Positions 17,982-34,562 of a stretch of 64,000 nt of DNA are shown here, piece after piece (positions within the stretch are counted from its first letter, which is position 1; every line of letters begins with the position of its first letter). A program made the position numbers and the translations under genes. Source of the stretch: an uncultured Chloroflexia bacterium. GTDB lineage: Bacteria > Chloroflexota > Anaerolineae > JAAYZQ01. Below the pieces are notes generated by a model. That model had not been told where the DNA came from. It saw only the letters and a list, made by a program, of their open reading frames with translations, and ran no database searches. The stretch lies in assembly GCA_963700285.1 (NCBI GenBank), contig CAVOXA010000010.1:128001-192000 (forward strand). Direction: 5' to 3'.

Positions 17982-20308
<2,327 letters not shown>

Positions 20309-20405
20309 CCTAGTACTGGACCTCCTCGTCGGTCGTTTGCGCGCCGCCTGGGCGCACCGCGCGCGGCGGAAGGGGAGTATCTTGGCCTGGTTTTGGCCAG
20401 TAAGT

Positions 20406-20639
20406 TCAGTCTCGGGCAGCGCTCGGATCGACCAGCCATCCTGCGGCCTCGTGGTAGAGCAGCTCAAAGCGCTGGCCTGTCTCCGTCCGGACGCAAAAGG
20501 CCGGGCCATCCGGCGTCCGCCAGCGGCTCTCGATACGAGTCACCGGATAGCGCTGCCCCTGCCACAGCACGGCCCTCGGTTCCTGGGCATAGGTATGGCC
20601 GGAATAGCATTCGACCCGAGCGGCTTCCTGGTCAGCCAC
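20406..20639 (-). CDS. Small hypothetical protein
   Basis: VECYSGHTYAQEPRAVLWQG...WRTPDG..F...FEL ORF filling the operon gap. Confidence 0.55.
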   Translation of the reverse strand: MADQEAARVECYSGHTYAQEPRAVLWQGQRYPVTRIESRWRTPDGPAFCVRTETGQRFELLYHEAAGWLVDPSAARD

Positions 20640-21640
20640 GGCCCTGGGCAAAGTCCAGCCGGGCCGAATCGCCCACGTTCAGCACCCGGTAGCGGCCTCG
20701 CACCACGGCATCTTTGCCGATCAGGGAACGATCCAGCATCGTGTCGTCGATATAGGCTCCCTCGTCGATGATCGAGTCGCGGACGATGGAGCGCAGGACC
20801 ACGGCTGTTCTCGGCAATCGTGACGTAGGGGCCAACGATCGAATGCTCCACCCGGGCTGAGGGGGCAATATACACCGGCGGGATGATCACCGAGTCCGGT
20901 GACGCAACCTCGCCGCCATTGTCCCGGCCGTGCTCCAGGAGATAGCGGTTGGTCTTGAGCACATCCTGGGGCGTGCCGCAGTCCTCCCACACCGACACCT
21001 CTCGCACGCCAAAGCTCGCGCCCTGCTCGATCATTACCGTGAAAGCATCGGCCAGGTAGAATTCGCCCTTGGTCTGCATGTCGCGCTCCATCAGCTCTTC
21101 GATGGCCCGCAGTCAGCCAGGCTCCATCGCGGATATAATAGACGCCGACAATGGCCAGTCGGTTCTCAAAGGTATCGGGCTTTTCCACCAGGCCTGACAC
21201 CAGCCCGTCATCCCCGAGCACAGTCACCCCAAAACGGCGGGGATCCTCCACCTCCTTGACGTAGAGCATGCCATCCAGCCCTGAAGTCTCCAACCCGCTC
21301 AGATCCGCCTCAAAGATGTGTCCACAAAGATGATCAGCACGGGCCCGTCCAGGTACTCTCGGGCCAGCCAGATGGCATGGGCTTGGCCCAGGAGTTCTTT
21401 CTGTTCCACGTAGCGGGCCGGATAGGGATAATCGCTGGCCTCATAGTACTCCTGGATCTGCTCGCCGAGCCAGCCGACGATAAAGATCAGCTCGTCGACC
21501 TCTACGTCCAGGTCAGCCAGCTTGTCCAGGATGTGGCCCAGCACCGGCTTGCCGGCCACGTTGACCAGCGGCTTGGGTTTGGACCAGGTGTGGGGCCGCA
21601 TCCGCTTGCCGAACCCCGCCAGGGGAATGATGACTTTCAT
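20632..21640 (-). CDS. Sugar-phosphate nucleotidyltransferase with left-handed beta-helix tail, frameshifted
   Basis: IPLAGFGKRMRPHT..KPKPL, VEKP, WEDCG, and hexapeptide-like IIPPVYI/SIVGPYV. Confidence 0.88.
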
Positions 21641-21671
21641 GTTTTCCTGTATCTCCTGTGATGATTGCCAA

Positions 21672-23139
<1,468 letters not shown>

Positions 23140-23143
<4 letters not shown>

Positions 23144-23437
23144 CCGTCCGCCTCCAGCACCACCGGCACCCGGAAGCAGTCCTCCTCCACGCTCGGGGCG
23201 TTGGCCAGCACGTCGGCCAGCGGCAGCGAGGGCTGCGACCTCGTCATCGCGCATGACGTTTTCCAGGGGCAGAACGGTGGCCGTGGGGGGAATGGCCGCG
23301 GTATCCAGTTGCTGCAGGCGCTCGGCATAGGCCAGGATAGAGGACAGCTGCTCGCGAAACAGTTCTTTCTCCTGGTCGCTCAAAGCCAACTGGGCCAGTT
23401 GGGCCACGTGTTCCACTGCTTCAGAGCTCAGTTTCAC
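23140..23437 (-). CDS. gatC: Asp/Glu-tRNA amidotransferase subunit C, frameshifted
   Basis: VEHVAQLAQL...LSSILAY...PPTA...MRDDEV, then LANAP....FRVPVVLE in another frame. Confidence 0.9.
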
Positions 23438-23680
23438 GGCAGAGATCGCCTCCCCGAGGATCTAGGGCTTTTTGGACAAAGCCTGGCGCCGCTATTATAG
23501 CACCTATTCAGGCAAACAGAAAACAGCCGCTGGCCCAGGGCAGGCAACTCGCACTGGGTACTGGCAGACAAGGCGTAACAGACGGTTGGGGCGCCGCACG
23601 GCGTCGACGAGGATGCACCAGAGGGTCCGAATGCCGGTACTTGTGGGGTTTCCACGTGGGTTTCGACCGAGTACTGGGGA

Positions 23681-24587: not shown

Positions 24588-25049
24588 CTATCCCTCAAGC
24601 TCCTGCTTCTTGGCCAGATACTCCTCGGGGGTGATGATCCCCTTGTCCCGCTGATCCTCGAGCTTTACCAGCTCTGCCTCGGTCTCCGAAGCGGACAGTT
24701 GGCTGGCCTCGGATGGGTGGACGCCAGTGGAGGCCCGCATAGCGGCCTCGGCGCCTGCCGGGTAACCCGGTACCTCTTTGCGCTTGTTGACAATCTGGCC
24801 CCACTTCATGATGTCAAGCACGACGCCCAGGAAAACCCACATCCAGTCCCAGCCGGCCACCCCGAGCCCGGGACTCCAGGCCAGGACGTACATGATCGTC
24901 GTGTAGGGCAAAAAGATGAGACCGAGCAGCGGCACGATGAACGTGTCAAAGGCGGCGTTCACCCGATCGCCAACGATCCACATGAAAGCCAATACCAGCC
25001 GCGGCGCGAACGCCGCACCCATCGCCAAGAGACAACCACAACCTAGCAT
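24588..25049 (-). CDS. Small membrane protein with C-terminal SHOCT domain
   Basis: PRL...PLLGLIFLPYTT hydrophobic core; ELVKLEDQRDKGIITPEEYLAKKQEL; GGAGGAGG RBS. Confidence 0.8.
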   Translation of the reverse strand: MLGCGCLLAMGAAFAPRLVLAFMWIVGDRVNAAFDTFIVPLLGLIFLPYTTIMYVLAWSPGLGVAGWDWMWVFLGVVLDIMKWGQIVNKRKEVPGYPAGAEAAMRASTGVHPSEASQLSASETEAELVKLEDQRDKGIITPEEYLAKKQELEG

Positions 25050-25300
25050 AATGAAACCTCCTCCTTGATTATTTGTCAGTTGTTGGAGTTGCAGCGCCAA
25101 CAGCTGAGATCACCACCGCAGTCTGATTACCCTGCGTGTCAGGCAATTTCTATTCCATCAGGGGTACAATGATTCTCATCTGACTCTCGTCGTGCTCAAC
25201 TGACCGGATACACTGGGCCTGGGCGGCCCCAAGGTCGAGCAGACCAAATGGTATGGGGGATTATAGCATATGAGCGGCAGGTACACAAGCCATCCAGGTG

Positions 25301-25421
25301 GAGATTGCTTTCCTGTCGCTGCGCTCAGGACAGGCTCTCGCTACACTCGTCGCAATGACACAGTGGCGGTATCATTCCGGATAGAGTAGCGACCTGTGCC
25401 ATGGAACTCTCGCAATGACAG
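25301..25421. repeat. Degenerate REP-like palindromic elements (GAGATTGC...CGCAATGAC type)
   Basis: GAGATTGCTT...TCGCAATGACA with an internal CCTGTC/GACAGG stem, and a second TCGCAATGACA ending near 25420. Confidence 0.5.
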
Positions 25422-25489
25422 ATCTGACTGGCAGTGCATGTCAAGGGAGAATGCGACAGCCCTGGCAGCTCATGGAGCTCGCCTGCTCG

Positions 25490-26707
25490 CTAACCTGATC
25501 TGACGAGTACTACGGCAACCGCCGTCACCACGATCAGCAGCGCGGCCGGTACCATGCGCCGGTAGATACCGCCCCAGGTGGCCCGAAAGTAGACCCGGGT
25601 CAGCGCCAAGCAGAGGTGAACGGGGGACAGCAGCAGGCCCACGTAGCCGCCGGCGTAGGCCAGCAGGCCACAACCGCTGGCCACCACGTCGGGTCCGCAC
25701 AGGGGCAGGACAATGGGAAAGCCGATGGCAAAGGCGGGCAGGGCCAGCCCCGTCAGCAACCCGGCCACCAGGGGAACCGTGAAGACGATTACGTAGACAG
25801 GGATGCCCAGTTCGGCAAAGCCCGCCGAGACCGCCTCCACCGCGCCGCTGCTCTCCAGGACGCGGCGAAAGACCATCGTCCCCACGATGATGGGCACCGT
25901 GCCCAGGGGCATGGCCCGCGCCAGGTCCCACAGCACGCGCGGCCCCAGGCGGTAGGCGGCGATCAGGGCAGCAATGGTCAGCACCAGCGACAGGATCAGG
26001 TCCAGGCCCAGCACAATGGACAGCCCCAACACCATGACAATGGGCCAGATGCTCTTGGCCAACAACAGGAGCGACTCCCTGCGATCGGTTCCTCCCTCAT
26101 CGGCTGCGGCCTTGGCCCGACTGATCCCGACCAGGCCAAACAGGATGCCGCCGGCCAACGTGGCCAGAAAAAGGGGCCACTGGGTCATGGTCAAGGTCTG
26201 GGGCGAGGCCCCCATCAGGCCGGCGGCCAGGACCAGCGAGGGATAGAGCGGGAAGATGGTCTCCAGGGAGTGGCGGAACCAGTAGTTGACAAAGGTTTTC
26301 CGCTCCTGGCTGAGGTTCAGGCCCTGGCTGGCTTCTTCCACCATCGGCGCGGAAAACATTGCCCCGCCTATCATCGGCAGTAAGCCGATGAGCATGGGCA
26401 AGATAGCCAGCAGCCAGCGCCGGTCCACAAAGAGGTCGCTGAGGGAGCGGATGAGTCCCTCCATTTGCAGCGTGCGGCCCAGGATCAGACCCAGGTAGGT
26501 GATCAGCAGCACGATGGCCACCAGGCGCAAGGTGAGGGGATCCACAGCCGCCCCCAGGGCATCCAGGGCCAGGTCGCTGAGAGGGCGCCCAAAGAGCAGG
26601 CCGGTCGCCAGCGAAGCCAGGAAGAGGACCAGGCCAACGTTCCAGCCGAACCGGAGCAAAAAGATGATGATGGCCAGAATGCCCACGAGCTTGACCAAGT
26701 CAAGCAT
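25490..26707 (-). CDS. DUF401-family membrane protein (putative transporter)
   Basis: IGLLPMIGGAMFSAPMV, NYWFRH...PLYP, LLSPVHLCL motifs; many TM helices. Confidence 0.85.
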   Translation of the reverse strand: MLDLVKLVGILAIIIFLLRFGWNVGLVLFLASLATGLLFGRPLSDLALDALGAAVDPLTLRLVAIVLLITYLGLILGRTLQMEGLIRSLSDLFVDRRWLLAILPMLIGLLPMIGGAMFSAPMVEEASQGLNLSQERKTFVNYWFRHSLETIFPLYPSLVLAAGLMGASPQTLTMTQWPLFLATLAGGILFGLVGISRAKAAADEGGTDRRESLLLLAKSIWPIVMVLGLSIVLGLDLILSLVLTIAALIAAYRLGPRVLWDLARAMPLGTVPIIVGTMVFRRVLESSGAVEAVSAGFAELGIPVYVIVFTVPLVAGLLTGLALPAFAIGFPIVLPLCGPDVVASGCGLLAYAGGYVGLLLSPVHLCLALTRVYFRATWGGIYRRMVPAALLIVVTAVAVVLVRSG

Positions 26708-27296
26708 GTGGCTGGTCGCCCATCTCGGCTATCACTCGTTCCAGATCCTGGATGGCCTCAGCCAGTTCATCGGCCAGCGGGTGCTGGCCCAACCGCTCTC
26801 GAACCAGGGCGCCAACGCTCAGGTAGTACCAGAGGGAAGGCCCTGGCCCGCGCGAGAAATGGCTCCAGAGCGAGGGTCCGTATAGACCCAGATCCCGGGC
26901 CAGGGATCTGGCGCTGTGCAGGGCATCTGCGGCCTTGACGGCCACCGCGTCAGGGCTGGCCGCACGGACCTGGGCCAGCACCTCCCGCTTTCGATCCTCC
27001 CAGGGGCGCTCCACACCAGCCTCCAGCTTTCGCTCGGTGACAGCGGCGACGAGCTCGGCGACGCTGGGGCCAAAAACAGCCTCAATGCGGGCCAGGGAAA
27101 TGTCCTGATCCTCGACGACATCATGCAGTAGCCCGGCGACAACCACCTCCTCTGCAAAACCATGGCGCAGCAGAATGGTGGACACGTGTACCGGGTGCAC
27201 GATATAGGGTACGTCCCCCGCCTTGCGATCTTGATGGCGATGGGCCTGGGCCGCCAGGGTCAGGGCAGCTTCGTAGCGTTGTGAAAAAGCCTTCAT
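26700..27296 (-). CDS. Stand-alone RelA/SpoT-type HD domain protein (small alarmone hydrolase-like)
   Basis: AHRHQDRKAGDVPYIVHP, GLLHDVVED, VTE, VKAAD motifs. Confidence 0.85.
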   Translation of the reverse strand: MKAFSQRYEAALTLAAQAHRHQDRKAGDVPYIVHPVHVSTILLRHGFAEEVVVAGLLHDVVEDQDISLARIEAVFGPSVAELVAAVTERKLEAGVERPWEDRKREVLAQVRAASPDAVAVKAADALHSARSLARDLGLYGPSLWSHFSRGPGPSLWYYLSVGALVRERLGQHPLADELAEAIQDLERVIAEMGDQPHA

Positions 27297-27544
27297 ATCG
27301 ACTCCGGCCAATGGGCAATTGAACCGGCCTGTGATGGAGCTGGCCTGCGCGCCCGTCCCGCGAGTGGGGATTATAGCACCAGCCTGGCAGATCCACAAAC
27401 AGCCACGCGCCCCAGATTGGACAGATCTAGCCTGTCATGGTTTCGTTGAAGAGGATCGGCATGATCCAACTCGTGGGCAAGGGGCCATCCGAAAAGGGAG
27501 CGGAACATGAAGACGATCCAGCGGGCCTGGGATTGGTGGGCCGT

Positions 27545-27796
27545 TCAAACCTCGAACGCCTTTTCCCCAGCCTCCACGGAAAAGGGCAACCAGGTCTCTA
27601 CCGGCGCCAGGGGGCAAACCCACTGCTCGTTGTAGGCGCAGGAGGGGTGCGACTTGAATAGATCGTTCCTCGCCGCCCGGAATGCTTCCCAGGCGCTCGC
27701 CTGCCCGGCTGGCGGCGCCTTCCGCACGGAAGCGTACATCTCGGCTACGGTCCGGCGCCAATGCGCCAGGGCAAGGGGATCGCCCGGTGTCGTCAT
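27545..27796 (-). pseudogene. DUF1684-family gene with an in-frame internal deletion
   Basis: N-terminal WRR..AEMYA...WEAFRAARNDLFKSHP is fused directly to C-terminal PSCAYNEQWVCPLAP....L...VEAGEK; only 83 aa. Confidence 0.65.
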
Positions 27797-29097
27797 GATT
27801 CCAGTACCTTTCTGAGGCCCCACTGGGCCCGGCCACGAAGGCCCCACCACACGACCATCGTCTCGACCATGAATCCGAATAACAAGGCCGCTACACCCCG
27901 CGTCGCACCATAGACTCCCAGGAGCGGCAGGAGGAGCAGTGCGACCAACACGGCCACGACGCGAGCGGGTGCGCTGGGCGCCATGGCCTGGGTACGGCGC
28001 TCGAACAGCCCGATGCCATGCAGGTAGGCGCGGGCCATCACCACCAGGGGGAAGAAGGTAAAGACCACCAGCGGCATCGCCGCGGCTGCCGCCAATCTGG
28101 CATCGACGCCGAGCAGCGTGCTCAGGATAAAATCCCGGACGGGTGTCCAGAATAGCAGAATCATGACGCCAAAGGACAGCAGCCCGCACCCGAGCGCAAA
28201 GCGGCGGATGTGTGCCAGACTGTTTTCCCTGTCCTGGAATGCAGCCGGCAGGTTCCGGATCTCATTCAGCCAGCCGTAGGGCAGGAGGCCCAGGGCATAG
28301 GTGATGGTCAACACAGCCAGCGCCTCGGTCCCGCCCGGTTCTCTGGCCACAAAGAGGTTGATGAGCGGCCGGCTCAAGCCCTGGATGGCCATGATCAGAG
28401 CCAGGGGCCAGAAAAAGCGGATGATGTAGGAAAACGAAAGGTCAGACCCTGGCTCCCGCAGCAAGTGATCTGCATTACGCCAGTTTCCCCAAATGACAAC
28501 AGCCAGCTCGGCGAGCGCGCCGGCATAGATAACCAAAATGGGCAAGCGGATTGGATCGGTCTGTACAAAGGCGGTTGGCAGCAGGGCGAACACAGCCAGC
28601 GTACTGGCACCCATGCTGACAAGCATGGCCAGGCTGACCACACCGGTCCGGCGGATGCGGAGCAGCAATCCTGAATGGTACCAGGCCAACCCCCTGAGCA
28701 AGGGGAGGGGAATCAGCCAGAGGATCACCGTCCGAGCTGCAGCGCCCAGGCTCCGGCTGACACCGTGCAGGTCCTCGATCACCCAATTCCCCAACGGTGT
28801 CAGCACCAGGCTGGCCAGGATGGCCCCCAGCAGCAGCCCGAAGAGCAGGACAAACCAATGTACCCGTTTGAAGGCCTGCCGGCCGTCGACCAGCACCAGG
28901 CCCAGTTGCCTGGTCTGCAGCATGGTCGTCGTCAAAAAGCTCACCAGGAACCAGGCCAGGCCAAAACTGGCCAGGGTCTCTGTCGCTCTTGGCAAACGGG
29001 CCATGCCGCCGTTCAGTACCTGCGTGCCCAACTCCTGCACCACTGTCATCAGGACCAGGGGCAGGAGAAAACGAATGAGTTCGATATATATCATCAT
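27793..29097 (-). CDS. ANKH (progressive ankylosis)-family membrane transporter homolog
   Basis: Colinear motif matches to recalled human ANKH: [71 protein letters not shown]. Confidence 0.85.
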   Translation of the reverse strand: [434 protein letters not shown]

Positions 29098-29124
29098 GCC
29101 GCCAGTGCGCGCATTGTAGCACAC

Positions 29125-29454
29125 TCACAACTGTTCGACAAAGCGAGAACCTGCGACATCCACTGACGCGCTCTCTGATGAGATTTGGATCGGGATCGTC
29201 GGTACACTCGGATGGGCGGAGAGAAAGGGGACCAGTACTGACTCGGGCTGCTGCCCGGTTTGGTTCCGGTCGTCCGTCATGACGCCAAAGCTCAGCAGAA
29301 AATCCAACATCTCTTGCAGGTCGAGGAACATGGCGCTCTTGCCGCTCTGCACATGGTCAATCTGGCCACGCCAACGCGGTCCGGCGACGGACCATTCCCA
29401 CCAGAAGCGCACGACAAAGGTACTGGCCGGTACGACAGAAAGGGGCGCTTCCAT
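29125..29454 (-). CDS. Small conserved hypothetical protein
   Basis: TFVVRFW.E......WRGQIDHVQSGK...F.DL.EMLDFL pattern; lies downstream of the secreted-protein gene. Confidence 0.6.
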   Translation of the reverse strand: MEAPLSVVPASTFVVRFWWEWSVAGPRWRGQIDHVQSGKSAMFLDLQEMLDFLLSFGVMTDDRNQTGQQPESVLVPFLSAHPSVPTIPIQISSESASVDVAGSRFVEQL

Positions 29455-29539
29455 GTCGAGCCAGATCCAGCCCTTTCACGGGTAGAGGGTCGGGAACGTG
29501 GTTCCCGACCCTGTCATCCTTCTACACGAGGCTGTGCTG

Positions 29540-30229
29540 TCACGGAGCCTGGGTAGAAACCTGCCGTAGCAAGATGGTTAGGGCCAGCACACACAAACCA
29601 GCCAGCCCAATCCAAAGCGGCAGCAGCCCCTCCAGCGCGGTCCCGCCTGTCTCTGGCACCGTGGGCGGCGCCGCTGCGACCTCAAAGTTCACGACAAGCT
29701 CGTACGTTCCGGCAGGCGTGACATGAAAGCCGTCGTCGATTTGCTCGCTGACGTCCAGCAGGCTGCGCAGCGTATGCGCGCCAGCCGTTGGGCCGACGAG
29801 TACGACGTCCCAACTGCGGAGCTTGGTGATCACCTCTTCGTCCGTACCGTGACCGGGCAGGCCCGTTTGAGGCAGATCACCATCGTAGGTACCGAATGCC
29901 TCCAGATCCACCAACTGACCGTCGAGATACAGGCTCCAGGTCATTGCCTCCCAGTTTGAGTCACGGAGATCCTCGTCGGCCGAAAACCAGCCGTGCCCGA
30001 TGGCCAGCTCCGGAAGGGGTGGGACGCTGCACTCCGTCGTCGTGACTCCAGGGTTGACAAAGGCAGGAGAGCAGAAAGCCCAGATCGGCGGGCCATCCGA
30101 GCCACCAGCCCTCAAGACCATCCCGCCGATGCTGTCACCGGGCTGAAAGTCCTCCTGGGCCTGGAGCGTTCCGGGCATGACGAGGAATGCGAACACAAGC
30201 ACAATTGTTGCCATCAGACCTGTTTTCAT
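29540..30229 (-). CDS. Secreted surface protein with LPXTG-like (VPETG) C-terminal anchor
   Basis: Signal peptide ending LQA; VPETGG followed by a hydrophobic helix and Arg; AGGAGG RBS. Confidence 0.75.
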   Translation of the reverse strand: MKTGLMATIVLVFAFLVMPGTLQAQEDFQPGDSIGGMVLRAGGSDGPPIWAFCSPAFVNPGVTTTECSVPPLPELAIGHGWFSADEDLRDSNWEAMTWSLYLDGQLVDLEAFGTYDGDLPQTGLPGHGTDEEVITKLRSWDVVLVGPTAGAHTLRSLLDVSEQIDDGFHVTPAGTYELVVNFEVAAAPPTVPETGGTALEGLLPLWIGLAGLCVLALTILLRQVSTQAP

Positions 30230-30364
30230 TTTGACCTCCTGATTCTGCAGAATGGCGGTCTGTTGTTCATCCAGTGAAAACGGCAGCGATCTGGAACTAC
30301 CAGGTTCCTGTGACCGCCACGAATGCGCCCTGCCTCTATTGGCTGGATCTTGTTCTCAATAGGT

Positions 30365-30407
30365 AGCATACCACGAGGCAGTCAAGAAAGCATCAAATTT
30401 CCATCAA
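30365..30407 (-). promoter_or_regulatory. SARP-type binding site: three heptamer direct repeats at 11-bp period, 8 bp upstream of a -10 box
   Basis: Minus strand: TTGATGG-aaat-TTGATGC-tttc-TTGACTG-cctcgtgg-TATGCT. Confidence 0.7.
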
Positions 30408-30487
30408 AAAGCCCCACCTTCCTCAGAAAGGTGGGGGCTTGCTGCCTCCAACGAGCAGGTAGGAGGCAACACAGGTAGGGCCGCACG

Positions 30488-33400
30488 CTAATGCGGTTCG
30501 ATGACGACATCCTTCCAGGGCGGCGTAGCCATGGTCGATATTGAATACCTGCTCACCCACGGTTTGACCAGGCGGTGGATCGACACGTAGGTGAGGGGCA
30601 AGATCCTCACCTCCTCTATCAGATTCTTTTCCGCTTGCCCATAGAGCCTCATTCTCTCCGGTTGGTCCGTGACCCGCCTAGCCGCTTCTATCAGCCTCTC
30701 GCAGCTTCTGTCCCCCCACCCAATGCACCAAGGAATCGTACTCGTCCTCAAAAAACTGTCGGGATCGGGGTAATCGGCGAGCCACCCCGCGGCGAGCATT
30801 TGTGGCGGGTCGCCGAGCATCCAGCCCCACCAGGTCTCCCCTTCTACGACTTGCCAGGAGAGCTCTACGCCCAGGAGCTCCTTCCATCGCGCCTGCAGGT
30901 ACTGGAGATGGGGAAGAAGGCCGGGCAATCCCATGGCCTCAACAGCGGGGAAGCCACGACCTCCAGGAAAGCCAGCCTCAGCCAAGAGGTCACCCGCCCG
31001 GTCGGGACGGTACGGCAGACCGATCCCAAACGAGTGGCCTGGCATTCCCGGCGGCACGAATCCACCCGTGGCGGGCAGATCGTAACCCCTCAGGATCACG
31101 TCGGCCAGGGTCTCCTTTTCTGTGGCCAGGGCGAAGGCTCGGCGCACCCGCACGTCATCGAAAGGCGGTCGCCTCACGTCAAAGCCGACATAGCTCGTGC
31201 TGAGCCTTGGTACCCGGACATATTCCCTGGGATGGGCCCGGCGTGCGGCGTCCATCTCCGCTGGAGAAAGACGGGCAAGGTTCAGGATGTCCAGTTGGTC
31301 AGCCTCATACCTCTCCAGTGCGGCAGACGTCTCCATCTCGAGCAACAGGGTCAGTTCCACCCGCTGTACATTGCCCCCAAAGCGGCCATGATATGCTGGA
31401 TGCCGCGAGAGGATGATCCTCTCGCCTGGATGCCAGGACTCCAGTCGGAAGGGTCCATTGGTGACAGTATTCCCCTCCTCGGTCCAGGCTTTGCCCAGCC
31501 TCTCCACGACATGCCGGGGTACAGGCAGGGTGACAGGGTTGGCCAACAGGTAGAGAAAGTAGCCCGTTGGCCCCTCCAACTCTACTTCCAGGGTGCTGTT
31601 ATCGAGAGCCCGTACCCCCACCCGATCTGGATCGGAAGCCTCACCGCGATGGAAGGGTTGGGCTCCTTTCACGTCATAAAGCAGGTTGGCCACCGTCGAC
31701 CCGGTGGCCGGGTCCAAGGCGCGCTTCCAGGCGTATTCAAAATCGCGCGCGGTCACCGGGACGCCATCGCTCCATCGCACGTCGTCCCGGAGATTGAAGA
31801 TGTATCTACAGCCCCCGTCAAGGACTTTCCAGGTCCGGGCCACATCAGGCAAGACGTCCATCTCTGGGCTCAGCGTCACCAGCCCGCTAAAGAGTTGCTG
31901 GACCAGCTCAATGGAGCCCTGCGCATCGGCAAATGCCGGATCCAGGCGCGTCGCCGCGTCTGTCCAATGCGTCCTAAGGGCATGGGGCGCTGGGGTGAGC
32001 GGGATGACCCGCGCCATCGACGCCGCCCGCTGCCACAGGGCAAAACCTTCTTCGTAGACCTCACGCGCTTTGCGAAAATCAAAGGCATTGTGATGGGTAA
32101 GGCCCAAACTCATCAACGTCCGAGCAGCCCGTCCATCGTCCTCCTGTTCCTGGAGCAGTACCAGCGCCCGCCGGTAGTAGTCGATGGCTTCCCGGTGGGC
32201 GTACAGCCCTCGCGCCCGGTCCCCTGCCTGCAGCAGGTAGGCGACCGCCTTCTGCGCCAGTGCCCGGTCCAACTCCCGACCTTGCTCAAAGTGGTAGGCC
32301 AGCTCGCCGGCCAACGCCTCCGTCTGAGTAGTGCCGTAGAGGCGCTCCATTGCCGCGCCGGCCCGTCCGTGGGCGTGCTGCCGGCGCCGACGCGGAATCC
32401 CAGCATAGACGACCTCCTGGATCTTGTGGTGGGTGAAGGCATAGTCCCGCGTCATGGCGCCCCTGCCCTCATCGAGCAGTCGCCGCCGCAGCAGAACGTC
32501 CAATGCCTCCAGAGTCGCCTCCGTACCCCGCCCCCAAACTTCATTGAGCAGGTCGAAATCCAACTCACGACCCAAGATCGCTGCGAGGCACAACACCTCA
32601 CGCGCACCGTCATCCAGGCTATCGACCCGGGCCTCGATGGCTTCACTGAGGCTGGTGGGCAGCGGCAGTGCTTCCTCGCTGACCTGGGCAAAGTTGCCTC
32701 TCCAACGCCCTTTCTCTAGACGGACAAAGCCTGCCTCAAAGAGGGTTTTGACAATCTCCATCAGAAAGAATGGGTTGCCCTCCGTCTCTCGGAACAGTCG
32801 CCTGGCCAGAGGAACGACGGCTTCACCCGCTCCCGACATCTCAACTACCATCGTCTCTACAGCCTCGAGCGCCAGCCGGGGCAGGCGTAACAACAGGGTC
32901 CGCCCTTCCTGACTCAGCCTTCTCTGGAGAGCGTGCAGCGGATGTCGCCGTCCCACCGCTTCCGGGCGCAGAGTGACGACCAGCACGATCTTCTGGTCTG
33001 CAAGCTGGCGGGCCAGGTAGTGAAGCAGTTGTAGCGTAGACTCGCTGGCCCAATGCAGATCCTCGACGACCAGGAGAAGCGCCTGGGGCGAAGCCAAGTG
33101 GCTGAGAAGACCGGTCACACCCTCAAAGAGATATGCCTGTTCATGGGTAGAGTCTGCCGTATCTGGTACCTCCAAGCGGGTAGTTTGCTCCAGTATCTCG
33201 GGTACCAGGCGCGCCACCCCGGCGACGATCCGTGGCGCCAAACCTGCCAGTTCCGCTGGCGTTAGGTTGGGCAGAAGCGTATGCAGCGCCTCAGAGATGG
33301 GCTGGTAGGGCAGCAGGCGTTCGAATTCGTAGCAACGTCCCCACAACACTCGGCCGCCCCGCCAGCGCAGTTGCTGGGCTAGCTCTTCGGTCAGACGGGT

Positions 33401-34321
33401 CTTGCCCACGCCTGCTTCGCCACAGATGAACACCAGGCTTCCTCGCCCAGATTCAGCCCGTTGCCAGCAGGACTGCAGAAGCTCAGTCTCGCATTCCCTG
33501 CCTACCAGCCTGCTGGGCGCGATGGCATCGAGGGGGTTGCGACCATAAGGTGGGGGGTGGATGCCCCTTCCCCCCACACCCGAGGCTGCCCCTGTAGAGC
33601 GCCCCAAGACGGTACGTCCCTCAAGGATGGCGCGGTAGAGATCGATGGTCTCGACCATCGGTTTCGTACCCAACTCTGCCTGTACCACCTCAAAGCACCG
33701 GTGGTACTGCTCCAGCGCTGCGTTTCGCTGCCCCAACCAGTAATAGACACGCATGGCCAGACGGTGCGCGTCTTCCCGCAGGGGGTCACGCTGCAGCAGC
33801 CGCAGGGCTGTGGACAGCGCTCCACCTTGCTCACCGCTCGCCTCTTGAGAGACCATCAACCGCGCCAGCGCATCGGCATACAGGTACTCGAGGCGGTAGC
33901 GCTCATTGAGGATCCAGTCGTCGTACAGGCCATCCAGAAAATCGCTGCGGTAGAGCGTCACGCCCGACGCGAGGCGATGGGTATCGTTGTAAGCGATCTG
34001 TGACTCGAATTCGGCCACGTCGAGCCAGAGGTTGACTTGAGGATCAAACTGGACGGTGTGAGAATCGCCCAGGATGGCCTCCTCGTCAGGAAGGCAGCGG
34101 CGAATGTGCCATAGGGAATTGGCCAGGGAGTGGCGAGCTTTATGCTCCGGACGGTCTCCCCAGAAAAAGCCTGCCAGCCGCGCGCGTGGCTGGGGCTGGT
34201 GGCGATGGCAGACCAGGTAGGCTAGCAGGGATCGGGACTTGAGCGTGGGCGGCTTGGGCAATGGCTGGTCGCCATAGCGGATGTCCAGCGTGCCCAGGAA
34301 GTAGAATTGCAGCACAGGCAT
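30488..34321 (-). CDS. SARP wHTH/BTAD + STAND ATPase + TPR + OppA-like (SBP_bac_5) fusion regulator
   Basis: LLAYL...FWGD, LYRSDFLDG, DPLREDAHR (BTAD); GEAGVGKT, VEDLHWA, EGNPFF (NTPase); LDPA, LFSGL, RWSDGVPVTARDF, NGPFRL, PPFDDVRVRRA (SBP5). Confidence 0.88.
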   Translation of the reverse strand: MPVLQFYFLGTLDIRYGDQPLPKPPTLKSRSLLAYLVCHRHQPQPRARLAGFFWGDRPEHKARHSLANSLWHIRRCLPDEEAILGDSHTVQFDPQVNLWLDVAEFESQIAYNDTHRLASGVTLYRSDFLDGLYDDWILNERYRLEYLYADALARLMVSQEASGEQGGALSTALRLLQRDPLREDAHRLAMRVYYWLGQRNAALEQYHRCFEVVQAELGTKPMVETIDLYRAILEGRTVLGRSTGAASGVGGRGIHPPPYGRNPLDAIAPSRLVGRECETELLQSCWQRAESGRGSLVFICGEAGVGKTRLTEELAQQLRWRGGRVLWGRCYEFERLLPYQPISEALHTLLPNLTPAELAGLAPRIVAGVARLVPEILEQTTRLEVPDTADSTHEQAYLFEGVTGLLSHLASPQALLLVVEDLHWASESTLQLLHYLARQLADQKIVLVVTLRPEAVGRRHPLHALQRRLSQEGRTLLLRLPRLALEAVETMVVEMSGAGEAVVPLARRLFRETEGNPFFLMEIVKTLFEAGFVRLEKGRWRGNFAQVSEEALPLPTSLSEAIEARVDSLDDGAREVLCLAAILGRELDFDLLNEVWGRGTEATLEALDVLLRRRLLDEGRGAMTRDYAFTHHKIQEVVYAGIPRRRRQHAHGRAGAAMERLYGTTQTEALAGELAYHFEQGRELDRALAQKAVAYLLQAGDRARGLYAHREAIDYYRRALVLLQEQEDDGRAARTLMSLGLTHHNAFDFRKAREVYEEGFALWQRAASMARVIPLTPAPHALRTHWTDAATRLDPAFADAQGSIELVQQLFSGLVTLSPEMDVLPDVARTWKVLDGGCRYIFNLRDDVRWSDGVPVTARDFEYAWKRALDPATGSTVANLLYDVKGAQPFHRGEASDPDRVGVRALDNSTLEVELEGPTGYFLYLLANPVTLPVPRHVVERLGKAWTEEGNTVTNGPFRLESWHPGERIILSRHPAYHGRFGGNVQRVELTLLLEMETSAALERYEADQLDILNLARLSPAEMDAARRAHPREYVRVPRLSTSYVGFDVRRPPFDDVRVRRAFALATEKETLADVILRGYDLPATGGFVPPGMPGHSFGIGLPYRPDRAGDLLAEAGFPGGRGFPAVEAMGLPGLLPHLQYLQARWKELLGVELSWQVVEGETWWGWMLGDPPQMLAAGWLADYPDPDSFLRTSTIPWCIGWGDRSCERLIEAARRVTDQPERMRLYGQAEKNLIEEVRILPLTYVSIHRLVKPWVSRYSISTMATPPWKDVVIEPH

Positions 34322-34562
34322 TGAAACCACCCCGCACGACGCAAATTCCGGCCATGGGCTAGCTTGAAGGGAATCATTGACAGGCCGCTTTGGTATTATA
34401 ACGGAGAATGCGCGACGGGTCAATGAGCGGCCACCACCCACCACCTCGTCGGCCCCGGACGTTCGCTCAGCGTCTCATACATCAACGGTCCGGCGTCACT
34501 GAAACAGGCTGGGACCAGGACAATGGGCCCGCCTACTCTCGAGTGCCTTTGCGAACCCCTTC

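Follow-up and report, generated by a model that had tools for sequence, protein, structure and literature searches.

A bacterial ANKH-family membrane protein from an uncultured Chloroflexia and its clade, which groups with eukaryotic ANKH

The DNA analysed here, a stretch of 64,000 nucleotides from a contig of an uncultured Chloroflexia bacterium (the window), encodes on its minus strand a protein of the ANKH family, P0001. ANKH is an animal membrane protein that controls tissue mineralisation, and its mutations lead to chondrocalcinosis and craniometaphyseal dysplasia. The bacterial reading frame starts with an ATG at 29097, with a second ATG 3 nt after the first, and ends with a TGA at 27793, giving 434 aa with zero internal stops and a GC content of 61.8% versus 61.0% for the genome. 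Its sole Pfam family at E<=0.01 is PF07260 (ANKH), scored at 196.5 bits against a cut-off of 22 and matched over positions 10-344 of the 344 in the profile. At the same threshold PF01554 (MatE) is absent from its Pfam matches, NCBIfam gives zero matches, and neither collection matches the protein to the MurJ or Polysacc_synt families. P0001 is intact and adds a new member to a bacterial ANKH clade that is known but unstudied; within its family, which is catalogued already, the gene is nothing out of the ordinary. The nearest named loci are L025 (titled 'uncultured Chloroflexia', 90% identical) and L017 ('uncultured Anaerolineae'). The features of the locus are as follows.

27793..29097, minus strand: ANKH-family (PF07260) gene for P0001, a membrane transporter with a predicted 12-helix MATE/MOP fold (translation, Pfam, predicted model, fold searches, alignment)
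29113..29141, minus strand: sigma70-type promoter-like site, TTGTCG, 17 nt, TACAAT with TG (extended -10) (motif scan; boxes kept in L025)
27545..27796, minus strand: remnant of a DUF1684 gene, its start overlapping the ANKH stop (ATGA) (Pfam, comparison with L025; local to close kin)
26700..27296, minus strand: stand-alone HD_4 (RelA/SpoT-type HD) domain gene, downstream of and co-oriented with ANKH (Pfam/NCBIfam; linkage in L017 and L025 only)
25490..26707, minus strand: DUF401/TIGR00529-like membrane protein gene, overlapping the end of the HD gene (Pfam/NCBIfam)

The preliminary description of this locus had taken P0001 for a true ANKH rather than an ordinary MATE protein. The full-profile PF07260 match, the missing MatE match and the grouping with eukaryotic ANKH described below bear this out, and all six bacterial motifs quoted there are present in the translation; sturgeon ANKHB has the corresponding motifs with small differences. 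The AF2 model and fold searches of P0001 indicate a 12-helix MATE/MOP fold, predicted with high confidence, and a half-versus-half profile match reveals two homologous halves. Vertebrate ANKH has been classed as having the MATE fold (PMC9333335). PDB sequence searches with P0001 and with the alignment A1 gave no match, and sequence and fold searches of the PDB up to April 2026 turned up no ANKH structure. The host genome has one strong ANKH copy and one weak, distant paralog (22 bits). The first ESM Atlas matches to P0001 are bacterial clusters auto-named as ANKH-domain proteins, mostly from Chloroflexota. In L025 the gene has one extra base, perhaps through an assembly error. Among 7998 scored candidates there were no longer or fused forms (761-2170 aa), which is weak evidence. 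Short contigs 99-100% identical to the gene occur in three metatranscriptome runs from three studies at depth 2-4; being contigs only, without a silent-stretch control, they are not used as evidence. All shares obtained in the expression check were small, at 0.13 or less.

The protein had also been called unusually close to vertebrate ANKH along its whole length. The full-length resemblance is confirmed: residues 4-416 of P0001 align with residues 10-444 of sturgeon ANKHB (P0273, XP_033914531.1) with 166/436 identities (38%, E 1e-89). Sturgeon ANKHB carries P5, M48, L244, C331, S375, F377 and G389 at the numbers of the human variants (PMC13356900), and is therefore a fair proxy for human ANKH. 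The unusual closeness, however, did not survive comparison with relatives. Counted over alignment columns, the identity of P0001 to sturgeon is 37.0%, the 16th rank among 158 bacterial clade rows (a few of them duplicates) that span 26.4-38.4% with a median of 34.7; by BLAST from sturgeon ANKH it ranks 144th of 398 in a list that includes animals. By the same measure, 10 invertebrates have 34-44%, the 19 protist-type rows 23-33% and the three outer bacterial clades (30 rows) 17-26%. The closeness to vertebrate ANKH is real, but as judged from these alignments it is a property of the whole bacterial clade and not of P0001.

A profile search of 1.84 billion representatives gave 292 proteins at E<=1e-30, of which the best 150 were listed and 30 were named by cluster look-up. 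Among the matches listed are vertebrates (sturgeon, other fishes and hagfish), invertebrates (Sycon, Lingula, Saccoglossus, Hydractinia and Sanderia) and protists (the choanoflagellates Monosiga and Hartaetosiga, the chlorarachniophyte Norrisiella, and eukprot/MMETSP protist transcripts). At E<=1e-10 there are 1226 representatives. A zebrafish paper remarks that Ensembl yielded no Ankh from invertebrates (PMC11417794). The collections searched here contradict this, and ANKH is far older than vertebrates. The preliminary description had held that its idea would fall if equally close bacterial homologs proved common and already characterised; common they are, and a characterising paper was not found. 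The literature searched, which took in few subscription papers, contained no paper on bacterial ANKH and no mention of PF07260, and the ANKH papers searched by term did not mention bacteria or prokaryotes.

Residues were compared in alignment columns against sturgeon ANKHB, with hagfish ANKH also compared. The invariant C-lobe set of Arg/Arg/Arg/Glu is kept, vertebrate R255, R384, R407 and E440 being R243, R356, R379 and E412 in P0001; E440 is the stop position of the ank mouse (PMC1794507). At the human loss-of-function variant sites (sites and numbering from PMC13356900), L244, C331, F377 and G389 are identical in P0001 and S375 is Thr (Ser in 87 of the 158 clade rows); four identities in five sites correspond to p=0.07 at 38% background identity. 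The animal-type residue set (R36, K60, R204, R252 and D168) is not found in P0001. The basic residues R36, K60, R204 and R252 (the last in vertebrates) are replaced by G30, S53, E197 and G240, as in most clade rows, and the acidic E31 and D168 by T25 and S161, with D168 likewise replaced in most of the clade. At vertebrate position 48 P0001 has a Thr (residue 41), as do most of the bacterial proteins and many homologs from outside the vertebrates. All five vertebrates sampled have Met there, and the chondrocalcinosis variant M48T has the bacterial-type residue. We considered M48T as a gain-of-function marker and dropped it: it raises ANKH activity according to a review (PMC13356900), but gave no rise in extracellular pyrophosphate in PMC1794507. 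As the papers conflict, we draw no functional claim from this Thr.

Trees were built with FastTree (140 rows) and as quick IQ-TREE trees under LG+C20+F+G4 (53 and 33 rows), with distant ANKH-like bacterial clades, not characterised MATEs, as outgroups. The bacterial clade is monophyletic (support 96, 98 and 97 in the FastTree, 53-row and 33-row trees) and is grouped with all eukaryote-type rows (99, 96 and 95), set apart from the bacterial clades B (the P0161 group), C (the P0186 group, one member named Planctomycetes) and D. P0001 falls inside this ANKH grouping. Animals, choanoflagellates and several protists make up a core clade (91 in FastTree, SH-aLRT 98 and 95 in the IQ-TREE trees) that leaves the bacterial clade outside, and three long-branched lineages (P0142; P0159 with P0176; P0175 with P0180) either form a polytomy with the bacterial clade or fall just outside it (85, 84 and under 80). 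The eukaryotic origin of P0175 and P0180 rests on the eukprot relative P0321 and on the tree, and P0159 and P0176 are presumed eukaryotic; a metagenome scan for the contig of P0180 confirmed none of 206 matches. On the 33-row set, approximately unbiased (AU) tests did not reject all eukaryote-type rows as one clade (p=0.21), disfavoured clade B as the sister of the eukaryotes (p=0.03), and were borderline, without rejection, for animals plus choanoflagellates as one clade (p=0.054). Animals together with the bacterial clade as one group were rejected (p=0.002), and with them a direct transfer from bacterium to animal. P0001's clade is the nearest prokaryotic kin of eukaryotic ANKH among the groups sampled.

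The bacterial clade is widely but unevenly distributed. A 90%-cluster search gave 431 matches among 7999 scored candidates, of which the best 120 have 55-100% identity and carry the PF07260 tag throughout; some bacterial members already bear the name 'progressive ankylosis protein' in databases. Of 201 pattern matches in a GTDB scan, 123 were confirmed. The 80 that were retained were analysed as loci, falling into 34 groups at 70% identity and titled Anaerolineae, Caldilineaceae, Chloroflexia, Latescibacterota, Gemmatimonadota, Opitutales, Handelsmanbacteria or bacteria without further name. PF07260 was found in 14/301 genomes of the host's class (E<=1e-10), and at E<=1e-25 in 2/251 genomes of its phylum and 41/121 genomes of the phylum of L031, titled Latescibacterota. 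It matched in 9 of 41 close relatives, strongly in three only, and in none of 14 control genomes. Among viral contigs, none of 83 pattern matches for A1 and none of three for P0176 was confirmed. This patchy distribution fits lateral spread or repeated loss. The Arg/Arg/Arg/Glu set is also present in the outer clades B, C and D. Weak matches above the PF07260 cut-off, at about 22-80 bits, extend to numerous more distant MOP-like families of bacteria (L002, G000:C13:12694-16209; clades B-D). One 945-aa protein, P0184, combines two distant ANKH-like MOP transporter domains in tandem within a single chain and has no Pfam match; it was left out of the 53- and 33-row trees and falls among the distant bacterial rows.

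These results bear on the suggestion that P0001 could be relevant to the origin of animal ANKH, which is not supported. Choanoflagellate, chlorarachniophyte and other protist homologs exist, and because animals plus the bacterial clade are rejected as a group, the clade offers no explanation for where animal ANKH in particular came from. Animal ANKH thus descends from a eukaryotic lineage older than animals, with the bacterial clade as its sister or its derivative, and the two share a common ancestor that predates animals. We speculate that the clade arose when an ANKH gene of an early eukaryote was passed to bacteria and then travelled laterally between Latescibacterota, Gemmatimonadota and Anaerolineae; its members would be compact working ANKHs that still export organic anions and keep an ancestral Thr at the M48T site. 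We hold this scenario to be unlikely; it draws on the free trees, which leave the clade among eukaryotic lineages, on the patchy distribution, and on the clade resembling vertebrate ANKH more closely than does any protist homolog sampled. If true, the bacterial members would serve directly as stand-ins for the structure and mechanism of the human transporter.

The putative promoter had been described as an extended -10 belonging to the ANKH gene. Its position is exact: the extended -10, TGCTACAAT, lies at 29121-29113 on the minus strand and ends 15 nt before the ATG, with TTGTCG as the -35 at 29141-29136 and a 17-nt spacer. The motif match alone is at chance level, since one such site was found in 25000-30600 versus 1.2 expected in shuffles. 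The congener L025, 90% identical and with a different gene upstream, retains both boxes, and blastn similarity to L025 begins about 54 nt upstream of the ATG.

Downstream, the DUF1684 remnant has a 387-nt in-frame internal deletion relative to L025 (83 versus 212 aa), and short C-rich motifs that resemble each other lie on either side of the junction near 27644. A single DNA contig from run X1, which may be the source sample, spans this junction (27593-27898, 1 mismatch). The HD_4 gene resembles the N-terminal HD domain of RelA/SpoT and may be small alarmone hydrolase-like. The order ANKH, DUF1684, HD_4, DUF401 recurs only in L017 and L025 among the 80 loci, and a conserved operon was rejected; no neighbour is general across the loci and their groups. 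Thiamine pyrophosphate (TPP)-dependent enzymes lie within 6 kb of the ANKH-like gene in 31 loci, or 6 of the 34 groups. The three enzymes classified fall into three subfamilies: a PRK06154 type downstream in Latescibacterota, a PRK08266 type upstream in Chloroflexota and a PRK08322-like one in divergent orientation. Such enzymes lie in the L028-L081 group (e.g. L031:6001-10135), at L022, L023, L027, L033 and L046, and at L070 and L072. From about 11 TPP-type genes in this 7 Mb genome, we estimate that about 0.7 of the 34 groups would be expected by chance; the excess is post hoc and weak. As a functional clue the TPP link was set aside: it is real, in three lineages, but it is weak, the enzymes are not orthologs, and P0001 has no such neighbour. 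Elsewhere in the window, the minus strand carries at 30488-34444 a gene for a 1318-aa protein that fuses a BTAD activator domain to an AAA ATPase, TPR and a family-5 solute-binding domain. Two proteins follow it, one of 229 aa and predicted to be secreted, the other of 109 aa and without Pfam match. At about 18000-23500 (minus strand) lie genes that we take, from their translations, to be those for uracil phosphoribosyltransferase, an aminotransferase, a sugar nucleotidyltransferase and GatA/GatC. These housekeeping genes are split over frames, which suggests assembly indel errors in that region; the ANKH gene is unaffected.

For the function of P0001, we lean towards a predicted 12-helix MATE/MOP transporter likely exporting a small organic anion by ion-coupled alternating access. 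The invariant R243 (TM7, transmembrane helix 7) and R356 (TM10) would form a cationic site in the C-lobe, R379 (TM11) and E412 (TM12) would form a salt bridge, and the acidic E22 (TM1) or E197 (TM6) in the N-lobe would couple H+ or Na+. As the clade is without the four basic residues of animal ANKH, the substrate would likely be not ATP but a catabolic by-product of lower charge that carries a carboxylate, sulfonate or phosphate group; the protein is likely an organic-anion transporter, not necessarily for ATP. The frequent catabolic-enzyme neighbours of its relatives are compatible with by-product export or with substrate uptake. Several points weigh against the anion-exporter reading. Transport data for bacterial members were not found in the literature searched, and the export direction is borrowed from the family. 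The helix numbers are read off the DSSP string, and the tree support is SH-type only, without bootstrap, in a set with long branches. Even distant clades, with about 20% identity to ANKH, retain the invariant arginines, which may therefore be structural and not substrate-specific. P0001's own neighbours (the DUF1684 remnant, the HD domain and DUF401) give no substrate clue.

Mammalian ANKH releases ATP and citrate (PMC7371198), and P0001 might be its functional equivalent, releasing citrate and/or nucleoside triphosphates. The 38% end-to-end identity to vertebrate ANKH, higher than for any of the 19 protist-type homologs, speaks for this, as do the loss-of-function sites and the invariant E412 at the ank-mouse stop position. 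But the four animal basic positions are uncharged or acidic in P0001, four identities in five sites have p=0.07 at the background identity, and a need for ATP export is not evident from the gene context; we regard such an equivalent as improbable. P0001 might also be an uptake carrier, working by ion symport or exchange and supplying catabolic enzymes encoded nearby with a small anionic nutrient. The co-oriented neighbours in relatives, which include TPP-dependent enzymes, an amidohydrolase, aminotransferases, aldolases and glycosidases, speak for this. The TPP enzymes, however, belong to three different subfamilies, 24 of their 31 loci are one close-kin group, part of the association is expected by chance, and no TPP-type neighbour lies in the window. 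The characterised MOP members known, moreover, are exporters or flippases, and we find uptake unlikely. A flippase of the MurJ/Wzx/RFT1 type, in which the arginines would bind the pyrophosphate of a lipid-linked sugar, seems very unlikely to us, although MurJ and WzxE have the same fold, one distant relative (P0238) has a weak Polysacc_synt match, and the Monosiga homolog is auto-named 'Protein RFT1 homolog' in UniRef.

The idea of a tractable structural model stands, with the closest sampled bacterial group to eukaryotic ANKH and no ANKH structure found in the PDB. A 2026 review describes structure-function relations of ANKH variants as still poorly defined (PMC13356900). P0001, tail-less, with 434 aa, 38% identity and four of the five loss-of-function residues, is a practical target for crystallography, cryo-EM or liposome work. 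It is useful as a structural surrogate, but it is not unique, any of hundreds of bacterial clade members being equally suitable, and it is not the source of animal ANKH.

Compared with known systems, P0001 has the MOP fold in common with the MurJ and Wzx flippases, but the MurJ structural score is lower, there is no family match, and no glycan-cluster context was seen. From MATE transporters, especially the citrate exporter HvAACT1 (PDB 9L7L) and the DinF type, it differs by a structural identity of only 11-13% and the missing PF01554 match, and its further basic residues lie in TM10 and TM11 versus TM2 and TM12 in HvAACT1. With the ANKH-like proteins of protists and invertebrates (Sycon, Lingula, Saccoglossus, Hydractinia, Monosiga, Hartaetosiga, Norrisiella and unnamed protist records) it forms a supported joint group, but their core clade excludes the bacterial clade. 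Relative to vertebrate ANKH/ANK (SLC62A1; TCDB 2.A.66.9) it is without the N-terminal P5 segment and the acidic C-terminal tail, but the two belong to the same Pfam family and their resemblance extends across the whole membrane domain.
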